A stretch of 32,000 bases of DNA from Candidatus Electronema halotolerans (GTDB lineage Bacteria; Desulfobacterota; Desulfobulbia; Desulfobulbales; Desulfobulbaceae). Of this stretch, positions 12,709 to 14,708 are shown in pieces; position 1 is the stretch's first letter; each line of letters starts with the position of its first letter. The notes under the pieces are model-generated. The model was given only the letters and a program-made list of their open reading frames with translations. It ran no database searches and was not told where the DNA came from. Where the stretch lies: positions 2,880,001 through 2,912,000 of the forward strand of contig OW818675.1 in assembly GCA_942493095.1 (NCBI GenBank), in the 5' to 3' direction. The translations under genes and the position numbers were made by a program.

Positions 12709-12738
12709 TTGTCATTTCCGCAGTCATGATGGTATGTT
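12709..12738 (+). promoter_or_regulatory. Possible sigma70-type promoter for the EACC1-like/caspase pair
   Basis: TTGTCA (12709-14), an 18-nt spacer, then TATGTT (12733-38), about 38 nt upstream of the ATG at 12776. Pattern match only. Confidence 0.3.
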
Positions 12739-12775
12739 CTGCAATGCTTCCGAACCATCACGAAAGGAGAATTTC

Positions 12776-13138
12776 ATGGACGCAACCCTTTCCCTGCACG
12801 ACAGCAGCCTGTCTGCTGAGGACATTGCCGACCTGACAGGCAGGCTGCGGCTGGACATCATTCAGGAAACTGGCTTGACCGCAAGGCAGGTTGAAACAGC
12901 GGGCGGACTTGGCACGAAAGGCGATGCTGTCACCATCGGCGCGATTGTGCTGGCTGCGCTGAGTTCTGGCGGCGTAGTCACAGACTTGCTGCAAGTGCTG
13001 AAATCCTACGTTGAGCGCAAGCCGACCTTGGAAATAGAGCTGGAAGTTGCTGGCAAGAAGCTGAAGATCAAGGCCGAGCATCTCCGCCCAGAGCAGATTG
13101 AGCAGACGCTTCAGGCGGTGCAGCAGCATTTGCATTGA
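12776..13138 (+). CDS. Small EACC1-like protein (effector-associated constant component type), 120 aa
   Basis: The ATG at 12776 follows SD AAAGGAGA. Architecture: acidic N-terminal segment, Gly-rich hydrophobic helix (GTKGDAVTIGAIVLAALSSGGVVTDLL), then a charged beta-like C-terminus (KPTLEIELEVAGKKLKIKAEHL). This matches my memory of the EACC1 family, which sits next to caspase-type effectors. Needs HMM confirmation. Confidence 0.6.
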   Translation: MDATLSLHDSSLSAEDIADLTGRLRLDIIQETGLTARQVETAGGLGTKGDAVTIGAIVLAALSSGGVVTDLLQVLKSYVERKPTLEIELEVAGKKLKIKAEHLRPEQIEQTLQAVQQHLH

Positions 13139-13141
13139 ACA

Positions 13142-13169
13142 GTAGGGGCGAAAAATTTTTCGCCCCTAC
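13142..13169. repeat. Perfect 28-bp palindrome GTAGGGGCGAAAAA|TTTTTCGCCCCTAC
   Basis: Read directly. It lies between the EACC1-like stop (13138) and the caspase start (13179), and no U-tract follows. It has the same GTAGGG-N16-CCCTAC geometry as the palindrome at 14677-14704. Confidence 0.8.
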
Positions 13170-13178
13170 CATAATGAA

Positions 13179-14627
13179 ATGAAAGGAAAACGCTACGCAA
13201 TCCTCATAGCTGCCAGCAAGTTCCCGGAAGAGCCGGGCCTGACTGAGCTGCGCTGCCCGGAGAACGACGTTGACGCGCTCCACGAGCTGCTGATCTCGCC
13301 GAACTGCGGCTTGTTTGACAAGAAGAATACTCTTGTCCTCAAGAACGCGCCAAGCCATGAGGTGCTGTATAAGATTGAGACCGTCTTGAATGACGCTGGC
13401 AGTGAGGACTTGGTGCTCATCTATTTTTCCGGGCATGGCAAGTTAAATGCTGCGGGGCGGCTTTGTCTGGCAACTGTGAACACCAAGCTGAGGGCACTCG
13501 GCTCGACCTCCATTGCAGCAGAGCAGATCAAGCGTTTCTTTGACACTGCCAGCACAAGGAAGAGGATTCTCATTCTTGACTGCTGCTACAGCGGCGCGGC
13601 AGGGGCGGAGTTTGTCAAAGGCGGGGTGGATGACCAGCTCCAGCTCATGTCCGGCGGGCAAGGCACCTTCATCATGACTGCTTCGACGGCGTTTCAGACA
13701 GCGGTGGAAAAGGAGGGCGACTCGAACGGCCTGTTCACCAAGCATTTGCTGGAGGGCATCCGCAGCGGCGAGGCGGACAGGGATGATGACGACCTCATTT
13801 CGGTGGATGATCTGTATGAATACGTCCATGAGAAAGTCCAGGCTGAAGGCGCGCAGGTGCCGATGAAATGGGGCCTTCAGGCCAAAGGCAAGATGATCAT
13901 TGCCAAGAGCGGCAGGGATGCGAAATGGCGGCAGGAGATGGAACGGAGTCTGCATCGCTTTGCCGCAGACGGCCTGTTGACCAGCCGCGTTGTCCATGAG
14001 GCAATACAAGTTCTGCGTATGCCGAAAAAGAAGCTGGTCGGCAGAGAACAGCAGCGCATTGTCCTGATTGAGCAAGTTATATGCAGCAGGCTCGGCATGG
14101 CTGATTTCATGGAGCAGTGGATGGACTTGCGCTGCCTTGACTGTGCCGCAGCGGCAGCGGCGCAGAGAAGCAGAACCATCGGGCGATACATTGATCATGG
14201 CGATGGCACGATCACGGACACTGAAACCGGCTTGATGTGGAAACGCTGTTTGGAAGGCTTGTCCGGCGTGAATTGTGAAGAGGGAGAGGTGAAAAGATAT
14301 AAACATGATGAGGCGGTGAAGCGTTTCAAAAATGTTGAATATGCAGGATATTCTGATTGGCGGCTGCCGACCATTGATGAACTGAAGACCTTGGTTCATT
14401 GCAGCAAGGGGAAAAACAAAGATGGCTACTGCAACGAGGGATCAAAAACACCGACGATCAATCAGCAGGCTTTTCCGAATGCTGAGGCAGAATACTTTGT
14501 CTGGTCCGGTTCGCCCTATGCGCCCAACTCGGACTATGCGTGGGGCGTCAGTTTCCTCAGCGGCGATTCCTACTACGGCGGCCGCTTCAGCTTCCTCGCG
14601 GTCCGGTTGGTGCGCGGCGGACAGTGA
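13179..14627 (+). CDS. Caspase-family (peptidase C14) protein fused to a C-terminal DUF1566 / Lcl-C-terminal-like domain
   Basis: 482 aa. The N-terminal caspase fold has KRYAILIAASKF, catalytic His in LIYFSGHGKL and catalytic Cys in ILILDCCYSGAAG. A helical linker spans roughly residues 245-335. The C-terminal ~145 aa carry DUF1566 hallmarks (TITDTETGLMWKRC, GYSDWRLPTIDELKTL, YFVWSGSPY, AWGVSF). Confidence 0.88.
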   Translation: MKGKRYAILIAASKFPEEPGLTELRCPENDVDALHELLISPNCGLFDKKNTLVLKNAPSHEVLYKIETVLNDAGSEDLVLIYFSGHGKLNAAGRLCLATVNTKLRALGSTSIAAEQIKRFFDTASTRKRILILDCCYSGAAGAEFVKGGVDDQLQLMSGGQGTFIMTASTAFQTAVEKEGDSNGLFTKHLLEGIRSGEADRDDDDLISVDDLYEYVHEKVQAEGAQVPMKWGLQAKGKMIIAKSGRDAKWRQEMERSLHRFAADGLLTSRVVHEAIQVLRMPKKKLVGREQQRIVLIEQVICSRLGMADFMEQWMDLRCLDCAAAAAAQRSRTIGRYIDHGDGTITDTETGLMWKRCLEGLSGVNCEEGEVKRYKHDEAVKRFKNVEYAGYSDWRLPTIDELKTLVHCSKGKNKDGYCNEGSKTPTINQQAFPNAEAEYFVWSGSPYAPNSDYAWGVSFLSGDSYYGGRFSFLAVRLVRGGQ

Positions 14628-14672
14628 TGTTGTCTTTTTGCCTCTTTTGGAATTCGGCCTCGGAATCCCCCG

Positions 14673-14708
14673 CCCGGTAGGGACAATTCATGAATTGTCC
14701 CTACCGGG
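14673..14708. repeat. Perfect 36-bp palindrome CCCGGTAGGGACAATTCA|TGAATTGTCCCTACCGGG (possible bidirectional terminator or REP-like hairpin)
   Basis: Read directly. It lies between the convergent stops of the caspase gene (14627) and asnS (14776). An 18-bp stem is possible, but there is no flanking T-run on either strand. Confidence 0.8.

Follow-up and report, generated by a model that had tools for sequence, protein, structure and literature searches.

What does a bacterial caspase do when it is fused to a putative ligand-binding domain and encoded next to a small protein with a Gly-rich hydrophobic segment? This question is raised by two codirectional genes of the multicellular cable bacterium Candidatus Electronema halotolerans, found in a stretch of 32,000 nucleotides of contig OW818675.1 (assembly GCA_942493095.1, positions 2,880,001 to 2,912,000), which as a whole is called the window here. 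One gene encodes a 120-aa protein of the EACC1 family and the other a 482-aa caspase that ends in an Lcl_C domain, also known as DUF1566. An earlier note on this DNA, made from the letters alone, had taken the pair for a caspase effector with a possible sensor domain and a constant small partner.

Our answer is that the pair probably forms a stand-alone EACC1-caspase module for abortive infection or cell suicide, of the type catalogued as System 4, and that its sensor tip is a variable region of the kind written by a diversity-generating retroelement (DGR). We give this reading a probability of about 0.68. The cleavage and toxicity results of Evans et al. (bioRxiv 2025, 10.1101/2025.11.14.688446) on a homologous system make the EACC1 the effector, the caspase its activator and the fused domain the sensor. 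Hence, the roles in the earlier note are to be reversed.

The sequence analysis itself shows the domain identities, the synteny and the variable-region signature. It also shows that the catalytic dyad and the cut-site Asp are conserved and that DGR cassettes of the cognate type exist, one of them in a cable bacterium.

The EACC1, the caspase and their pairing

The two genes and the parts of their products are located as follows.

12776..13138, + strand: EACC1 gene, 120 aa, predicted latent pore-forming death effector
12914..12925, + strand: predicted caspase cleavage site T47-K48-G49-D50, cut after D50, motif G.GTKGD/AVTIG with the slash at the cut
12926..12994, + strand: Gly/Ser-rich hydrophobic segment AVTIGAIVLAALSSGGVVTDLLQ, with which the predicted toxic C-terminal fragment (residues 51-120) begins
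13179..14627, + strand: caspase-linker-Lcl_C gene, 482 aa, predicted sensor-protease
13188..13865, + strand: caspase (Peptidase_C14) domain, residues 4-229, PF00656, 59 bits
13434-13436, + strand: catalytic His86 in the FSGHG motif
13584-13586, + strand: catalytic Cys136 in the LDCC motif
13911..14183, + strand: helical linker without a transmembrane helix, approximately residues 245-335, ~90 aa
14205..14615, + strand: Lcl_C / DUF1566 domain, residues 343-479, PF07603, 101.9 bits, E 3.4e-29, predicted ligand sensor

By profile comparison, the small protein is a genuine EACC1, as the earlier note had proposed. It matches the Pfam family PF19953 over profile positions 7-106 of 107 with 26.3 bits against a gathering cutoff of 23.6, and most of its 93 homologues were already annotated with PF19953 or named EACC1. 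An alignment of 31 EACC1 sequences was compared by hhalign with the experimentally tested KrEACC1, whose sequence was taken from the supplement of Evans et al. The match has an E value of 3.4e-5 and places Kr Asp49 opposite D50. That no EACC1 had ever been tested, as the earlier note believed, is outdated by the cleavage, toxicity and liposome permeabilisation that Evans et al. showed.

A cut of the EACC1 after D50 is the most likely event, judging from the alignment, the conservation, a disordered loop in the predicted structure and the fragment sizes. Among the 31 sequences, K48 and G49 of the cut-site motif are invariant and D50 is at least 90% conserved. The AlphaFold2 model has a mean pLDDT of 73.5, and residues 42-51, which contain the TKGD motif, are its sole stretch with a pLDDT below 50. 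This disordered stretch joins an N-terminal beta-alpha-beta half to a C-terminal beta-alpha-beta-beta-alpha half, in agreement with the two-unit architecture described by Evans et al. The predicted fragments are of 5.2 and 7.7 kDa, compared with 5.7 and 7.2 kDa for KrEACC1.

The hydrophobic segment AVTIGAIVLAALSSGGVV is conserved in the EACC1 alignment and reaches a maximum Kyte-Doolittle 19-residue mean of 1.92 at residues 51-69. It fits the conserved Gly-rich helix of Kaur, Burroughs, Iyer and Aravind (eLife 2020, PMC7159879). A Foldseek search of the EACC1 model against the PDB gave no match at E <= 0.001, the matches being only generic ferredoxin-like alpha+beta ones.

By the same kind of comparison, the 482-aa protein joins a caspase of the EACC1-associated type, whose dyad is intact, to Lcl_C/DUF1566. 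It passes the NCBIfam model NF047832 caspase_w_EACC1 ('caspase, EACC1-associated type') with 178.8 bits against a cutoff of 140, while in PADLOC-DB v2 it matches the generic 'caspase' model only (PDLC02987, E 4e-10) and no system-specific model. In a profile of 25 homologues searched against the PDB, H86 and C136 align with His415 and Cys464 of MALT1, so the His/Cys dyad noted earlier does occupy the catalytic positions. Foldseek with the N-terminal AlphaFold2 model, whose caspase domain has pLDDT mostly of 80-95, returned MALT1, caspase-3/9/1 and metacaspases, with E values of 1e-10 to 1e-7 for MALT1 and the caspases.

The linker is modelled as four helices (residues 246-263, 269-279, 289-301 and 307-327) with pLDDT of 75-90, which upholds the helical linker of about 90 residues seen before. 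Neither an NTPase nor a trypsin domain was detected in the protein by Pfam or NCBIfam, in keeping with the earlier remark that no STAND/AAA NTPase or trypsin partner is present. Nor does it hold a transmembrane helix or a signal-like stretch, the highest Kyte-Doolittle mean over 19 residues being 1.09; the Lcl_C domain is therefore expected to be cytoplasmic. Eight homologues (P0008, P0009, P0017, P0020, P0028, P0030, P0043 and P0051) do have a transmembrane helix in the linker. Thus, caspase-Lcl_C relatives appear to sense in both cytoplasmic and extracytoplasmic topologies.

The profile checks for Peptidase_C14 and DUF1566/Lcl_C that the earlier note had called for both gave matches, with 59 and 102 bits, respectively. 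For the fold of the Lcl_C domain, the profile search against the PDB gave one weak match, 8q4e 'HbP1', with E 0.006. Two other identities were considered and rejected. A surface adhesin of the Lcl type or a secreted DUF1566 binder is ruled out by the caspase N-terminus and the absence of a signal-like stretch, and with the Lsa25 adhesin model the protein reaches 30 bits, far below the cutoff of 260. A STAND/Avs-caspase protein is ruled out because a helical linker, instead of an NTPase, lies between the protease and the sensor.

The pairing was followed in 80 loci that hold the closest caspase relatives, one genome per species, from cable bacteria, Acidobacteriota, Planctomycetota, Alphaproteobacteria, Methylococcales and others. 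An EACC1 homologue, searched for by single-sequence phmmer with the window EACC1 at E <= 1e-3, immediately precedes the caspase gene in the same orientation in 63 of the 80, including 12/12 of the cable-bacterial loci. The two genes are therefore conserved neighbours, a point that the earlier note had left to be checked, and no partner gene other than EACC1 is conserved beside them. Flanked by housekeeping genes only, the pair is by itself a conserved conflict module.

What varies is the C-terminal domain of the caspase. Close relatives carry FGE-sulfatase, WD40 or other domains at the Lcl_C position, and a lectin-class C-terminus occurs in 27 caspases of the 80 loci, being Lcl_C in five and FGE-sulfatase in 22. 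The same genome holds a second EACC1-caspase pair, GCAAIG_12090 and GCAAIG_12085. It also encodes GCAAIG_00895 (P0051), whose start resembles the last caspase strand (KNGRDAKEKRKQEM). Next come a transmembrane helix and a tandem of two Lcl_C domains, in which the variable-region frameworks have decayed; the protein may be a truncated or mis-started paralogue.

In Candidatus Electrothrix laxa (OW818652.1), two EACC1-caspase pairs lie within ~37 kb, in the loci L003 (81983-103455) and L009 (118604-139554). Their closeness suggests a defence island.

The variable tip of Lcl_C and its possible template

The end of the caspase gene has two features that are typical of DGR targets.

14502..14624, + strand: DGR-type variable region, residues 442-482, the last 41 codons, WSGSPYAPNSDYAWGVSFLSGDSYYGGRFSFLAVRLVRGGQ
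14598..14642, + strand: recipient end like an IMH, the 'initiation of mutagenic homing' sequence of DGR targets, GCGGTCCGGTTGGTGCGCGGCGGACAGTGATGTTGTCTTTTTGCC

In an alignment of 25 sequences, the tip has an invariant scaffold, WSGSP.A..S..AW.V.F..G.S....R....AVRLVRGGQ, with 18 hypervariable positions. Across 22 homologues, the variable region divides into 18 hypervariable and 23 framework columns. Residues that NNY codons can encode fill 394 of the 395 places at the variable columns; elsewhere in those homologues, K, E, Q, M and W account for 22% of the residues.

The codons of the window copy follow the same division. All its variable codons are NNY (18/18, against a background frequency of 0.51; P ~5e-6), and its framework has two adenines per 69 nt (background 25%; P ~5e-7). 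This codon pattern recurs in four other cable-bacterial orthologues. Compared with the 86%-identical relative L096, 14 of the 18 variable codons differ, at their positions 1 and 2 only, while the framework differs by one synonymous change. The framework of the window copy is intact, without non-synonymous drift.

The recipient side is also shared. The verified variable regions of L082, L086, L092, L093 and L099 and the caspase genes of L001, L003 and L096 share a 3' end in which ...GGCGGACAGTGA is followed by a T-rich tract, TTTTGTTTTTTTG or a sequence close to it. The window reads GGCGGACAGTGA and then TGTTGTCTTTTTG, in the manner of 10 verified variable regions. It is here that template repeats depart, reading GGCGGA[A/G]AGTGGCA[G/A]..GGGTG.

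Such a codon and framework signature is what adenine-specific mutagenic retrohoming leaves behind when the template is rich in AAY. Among DGR targets, DUF1566 domains form an established class, CLec2 (category 'd'), of which Legionella LdtA is an example (Wu et al. 2018, PMC5758913). The earlier note had identified the Lcl_C domain rightly and placed it among ligand-binding domains with no explanation for its fusion to a protease, but it missed the DGR-type variable region at the C-terminus. It also overstated the novelty, since the target class was known and Evans et al. devote one sentence to DGR-linked EACC1-protease modules.

The template that we infer would read TGGTCCGGTTCGCCC AAT GCG AAC AAC TCG (G/A)AC AAT GCG TGG AAC GTC AAT TTC AAC AAC GGC AAT TCC (AAC)x4 CGC (AAC)x4 GCG GTC CGG TTG GTG CGC GGC GGA. 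Metagenome contigs were scanned with the corresponding pattern TGGAAYGTCAAYTTCAAYAAYGGCAAYTCCAAY, and none with it came from the sample that holds a 96%-identical strain. A phage-borne cognate template was also considered and set aside, as a scan of viral contigs gave two matches, both of a different framework class.

Cassettes of the cognate type do exist elsewhere. L082 and L086 are complete, each comprising a secreted Lcl_C target, bAvd, a template repeat (VWSGSPNADNSDNAWNVNFNNGNSNANNRNNNNAVRLVRGGK), a 529-aa reverse transcriptase (RT) and a small secreted Lcl_C target. The variable-region framework of the window matches both template repeats. Against the template, the variable regions of the cassette itself differ at adenine positions in 19/19 and 17/17 cases. 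The best named relative of the L082 RT, with 74% identity, is a partial RT of Candidatus Electrothrix sp. AR3, on a contig where a 173-aa Lcl_C target follows the RT. Cable bacteria thus carry this DGR clade.

Further RT loci, L093 and L097-L099, are cassettes with Lcl_C targets only and no caspases. In L097 (6925-11824 of an ENA contig of 2.9 Mb), the Lcl_C-target cassette is interrupted or flanked by three transposase genes and adjoins ParE and AbiEii toxin genes.

A self-blast for adenine-biased repeats together with RT motif scans, over the window and the 80 loci, found a template and variable-region pair beside an RT in L039 only. This locus of Bryobacterales has an EACC1, a caspase-FGE-sulfatase with a variable region, Avd, an RT and the template repeat all adjacent, and 17/20 of the mismatches between its template and variable region are at template adenines.

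The proposed mechanism and its alternatives

In the mechanism that we propose, the cytoplasmic 482-aa protein would sense through its C-terminal Lcl_C domain, which is of the C-type-lectin class. The ligand, most plausibly a multimeric component of a phage or other invader, would gather the caspase domains and thereby render the His86/Cys136 dyad active. The caspase would then cut the EACC1 after Asp50 in TKGD/AVTIG and take away its 5-kDa autoinhibitory N-terminal half. The freed 7.7-kDa fragment, with the Gly-rich hydrophobic segment first, would oligomerise into membrane pores and kill the cell, and the death of one filament cell would protect its clonal neighbours. The sensor role of Lcl_C, the ligand-induced clustering and the nature of the ligand are what we infer here.

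The tip of the sensor, its last 41 residues, would have had its 18 contact codons written by adenine-specific mutagenic retrohoming from an AAY-rich template located elsewhere. A tip so written would give the module a hypervariable, 'antibody-like' specificity.

The closest tested system is KrEACC1-KrAvs12 of Ktedonobacter racemifer, in which the caspase fused to Avs12 cleaves EACC1 at Asp49 (Evans et al. 2025). Only the C-terminal fragment is toxic there, the cleaved EACC1 permeabilises liposomes and forms membrane pores, and the caspase-fused domain is the sensor of a phage protein. The two systems are alike in the 5' EACC1 and the 3' caspase with a His/Cys dyad, in the cleavage Asp just before the Gly-rich segment with similar fragment sizes, and in the predicted N-terminal autoinhibitory and C-terminal pore-forming halves. 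KrAvs12 differs by its STAND/Avs12 NTPase, which senses phage tail connector proteins, whereas here a Lcl_C domain of ~140 aa with a DGR-type variable region is present and no NTPase. The two EACC1 proteins are similar only remotely, at the profile level.

The pair also belongs with System 4 of Kaur et al. (2020), described there with ~50 alternative C-terminal domains, with which it shares the gene order, the constant EACC1 and caspase, the variable C-terminal domain and the occurrence in multicellular bacteria. DUF1566/Lcl_C is not named in the main text of that paper among the ~50 domains, and it is VMAP-ternary systems with FGS domains, rather than System 4, to which it ties DGRs. Kaur et al. 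proposed the EACC1 as a membrane sensor and the C-terminal domain as the effector; these roles are contradicted by the later experiments.

Three kinds of DGR-linked systems resemble the window pair in part. The EACC1-caspase-FGE-sulfatase class with a DGR (L039; Evans et al.) likewise has an EACC1, a caspase and a C-type-lectin-class domain ending in a variable region, but its lectin is the FGE-sulfatase type (CLec1) with the DGR adjacent, while the window has Lcl_C/DUF1566 (CLec2) and no DGR in 32 kb. The DUF1566-class targets (LdtA; L082, L086, L092, L093) share the variable-region framework, the recipient 3' end and the NNY codons, but are secreted or lipoprotein binders of 170-510 aa without an enzymatic domain, unlike the intracellular caspase fusion paired with a predicted pore toxin here. 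The DGR-diversified 'putative antigen sensors' of Doré et al. (PNAS 2024, PMC10907252) combine a hypermutated C-type-lectin sensor with conflict effectors, including caspase-like peptidases, in multicellular bacteria. These differ in their MoxR/VMAP-ternary or STAND contexts, their FGE-sulfatase-type lectins and their hosts, Thiohalocapsa and cyanobacteria, and that paper mentions neither EACC1, DUF1566 nor cable bacteria.

Functionally, the proposed cut is analogous to those of bacterial gasdermins by caspase-like proteases and of mammalian gasdermins by caspases, where a protease removes the autoinhibitory part of a pore-former (an analogy of Evans et al.). There is no relationship in sequence or fold, the EACC1 model having no significant PDB match.

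Several points weigh against our reading. Cleavage, toxicity and pore formation are carried over by analogy from the homologue of Evans et al. The PF19953 score of the EACC1 is just 2.7 bits over the cutoff, and this small protein has no NCBIfam or PADLOC match. The AlphaFold2 model of Lcl_C is of low confidence (pLDDT 37-65), a single-sequence phmmer search with this domain found no relative in the PDB, and its C-type-lectin fold and binding surface are taken from the literature. Moreover, between the window and L096, its closest full-length relative, the whole Lcl_C domain, not the variable region alone, is more diverged than the caspase domain.

Other such points concern the DGR. The 32-kb window has no template repeat (blastn with word size 7 of 14200-14700 against the rest gave nothing above chance) and no RT (DGR RT motif scans; no RVT domain by Pfam on the window's open reading frames). 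Within a distance of 10 kb, none of the 12 caspase loci of cable bacteria has either of them, and no RT named Candidatus Electronema halotolerans is among the 120 best RT homologues. The nearest template repeat, that of L082 from a metagenome, differs from the window by 31 mismatches, 22 at adenines and nine at other bases; because of these nine, it is a template of the same clade and not the cognate one. The T-rich tract of the window deviates from the commonest form at two positions, and two paralogues from the same genome, P0010 (G to S) and P0051, show decayed frameworks; both observations are compatible with a DGR that no longer acts on the window copy.

Such a relic is the strongest alternative, and differs from our reading in the diversification step only. 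An ancestor's DGR would have written the Lcl_C tip and since been lost or gone off target, so that a sensor-caspase-EACC1 module of fixed specificity exists now. The absent template and RT around the loci, the 120 best RT matches with none from this species, the template scan with no contig from the sample of the 96%-identical strain, the two substitutions in the recipient tract and the paralogue decay all favour it. Against it, the window framework is intact with its two adenines and no non-synonymous drift, and the divergence from the 86%-identical relative is concentrated in the variable codons. DGRs also act on remote targets >100 kb away (Wu et al. 2018; Kaur et al. 2020), and the searches here covered the 32-kb window and the surroundings of the loci. 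We hold the relic to be a substantial minority prospect, and present-day diversification of the window copy to have a chance slightly better than that, somewhat short of even.

Another alternative is a developmental or self-directed death module, in which Lcl_C binds an endogenous or damage ligand and causes 'ghost cells' or filament breakage. Cable bacteria do have ghost cells of unresolved origin within their filaments and caspase-domain genes of unknown function (PMC12163305). EACC1 systems are strongly enriched in multicellular bacteria (Table 1 of Kaur et al. 2020), and stress-response roles have been raised for DnaK-fused versions (Evans et al. 2025). A hypervariable sensor, however, would be expected where the ligand is foreign and evolves fast, rather than where it is a constant part of the self, and each genome has several paralogous pairs with different variable regions. 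The genomic contexts vary as for accessory defence genes, and the tested homologue responds to a phage protein. Death directed at self is thus rather improbable as the purpose of the pair.

Lcl_C might instead localise the caspase, anchoring it to an envelope glycan or protein, with activation coming from an unlinked component. DUF1566/Lcl_C proteins are usually surface or secreted binders (PMC5758913), and several homologues place Lcl_C outside the cell through the transmembrane linker. In the window protein, the domain is cytoplasmic for lack of a signal peptide or a transmembrane helix; no partner gene except EACC1 is conserved, and recognised sensors such as Avs/STAND hold the position C-terminal to the caspase in this family. 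Anchoring is accordingly a very unlikely role.

Least credible of all, by a little, is the published computational model of Kaur et al. (2020), in which a membrane-inserted EACC1 sensor activates the caspase and this frees an Lcl_C effector by autoproteolysis: the conserved hydrophobic Gly-rich segment of EACC1 accords with it, but in the one tested system the caspase cleaves EACC1 and the C-terminal fragment alone is toxic and permeabilises liposomes, the cut-site Asp is conserved in the window EACC1, and toxicity is not plausible for a hypervariable binding domain of the lectin type, such domains being ligand binders in DGR biology (Wu et al. 2018; Kaur et al. 2020).

The locus setting and the biology of cable bacteria

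The features around the two genes are as follows.

10984-12672, + strand: SulP permease gene, before the EACC1 gene
12709..12738, + strand: promoter-like site upstream of the EACC1 gene, TTGTCA, 18-nt spacer, TG-extended TATGTT
13142..13169, no strand: perfect palindrome GTAGGGGCGAAAAA/TTTTTCGCCCCTAC in the 40-nt gap from the EACC1 stop to the caspase ATG
14672..14709, no strand: perfect hairpin with a 17-bp stem and a 4-nt loop, without a T-run, between the convergent caspase gene and asnS
14776-16206, - strand: asnS, after the caspase gene and convergent with it

Both open reading frames lie between the SulP permease gene and asnS as the earlier note described them, and the caspase-Lcl_C protein has 100% identity with GCAAIG_12930 of Candidatus Electronema halotolerans. 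The earlier start coordinate, 12709, is that of the promoter-like site; the EACC1 gene itself begins at 12776. Its ATG is preceded at 7 nt by the Shine-Dalgarno sequence AAAGGAG. Longer starts at a GTG (152 aa) and an ATG (134 aa) were dropped, as the ribosome-binding site and the N-termini of the homologues favour ATG 12776. The promoter-like site is weakly indicated, since the consensus scan behind it gave three sites in the region versus 1.0 expected by chance.

The SulP/asnS setting is retained in the metagenomic strain L095 (96% identity) alone and is absent from other species of cable bacteria. Hence, the module behaves as an accessory gene set.

The intergenic palindrome, kept 100% in L095, may act as an attenuator and in this way set the EACC1-to-caspase ratio. 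No obvious Shine-Dalgarno sequence precedes the caspase ATG, in contrast to the strong one of EACC1, and together with the palindrome this may result in a high EACC1-to-caspase ratio. The hairpin after the caspase gene has a DNA fold z-score of -3.9, and 0/200 shuffles folded as well. It could be a bidirectional terminator or an inverted repeat for DGR homing, as such a repeat downstream of the IMH aids homing (Wu et al. 2018). A conserved DGR cruciform was considered and dropped, because many targets have downstream hairpins and neither their position nor their sequence is conserved.

Several other genes of the window were noted as well. A 397-aa protein with a C-terminal TIR domain is encoded at 30666-31859 (+) and matches PADLOC PDC-S66 (E 3.6e-63) and ThsB-like models (E 1.9e-38). 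It sits in a low-GC stretch (~40% GC) from ~30.5 to 32 kb and is probably a separate, horizontally acquired defence gene. A second low-GC island (~40% GC) at 27500-29000 contains a 259-aa open reading frame, 27952-28731, without a Pfam or PADLOC match. Two Ter-type stress or conflict clusters are located at 1199-4060 (AIM24, VWA, VWA-TerY_C) and 25050-26961 (TerD, TerD, VWA), and a 205-aa protein at 23089-23706 (-) has a Kazal-type serine-protease-inhibitor domain, which is unusual in bacteria.

The core EACC1-caspase system was already described and has recently been tested, so the pair is no new kind of machine. An Lcl_C domain with an orphan DGR variable region as the sensor is not named in the literature surveyed, while the logic is published for related systems (Kaur et al. 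2020; Doré et al. 2024; Evans et al. 2025). The puzzling caspase-DUF1566 fusion is explained in that the domain is a hypervariable, DGR-class predicted ligand sensor, neither a surface adhesin nor an effector. With its small size, 120 and 482 aa, the pair would ease heterologous reconstitution and swaps of the variable region.

One further proposal is doubtful, less probable than the relic: that a single chromosomal DGR of cable bacteria, with secreted Lcl_C proteins as the targets in its own cassette, also continually rewrites in trans the Lcl_C tips of several dispersed sensor-caspases, which are intracellular or transmembrane and are each coupled to an EACC1 pore toxin. If true, it would provide an anticipatory, antibody-like repertoire tied to pyroptosis-like death in a multicellular prokaryote, and a molecular candidate for the unexplained ghost cells.

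Cable bacteria encode several EACC1-caspase pairs per genome, with Lcl_C or FGE-sulfatase sensors and some with transmembrane linkers. Caspase-triggered EACC1 pores offer a concrete and testable mechanism for their caspase genes and for the ghost cells of their filaments. If a remote DGR still rewrites the sensors, these pairs would be a compact form of anticipatory receptor diversification that feeds cell death without an NTPase switch.

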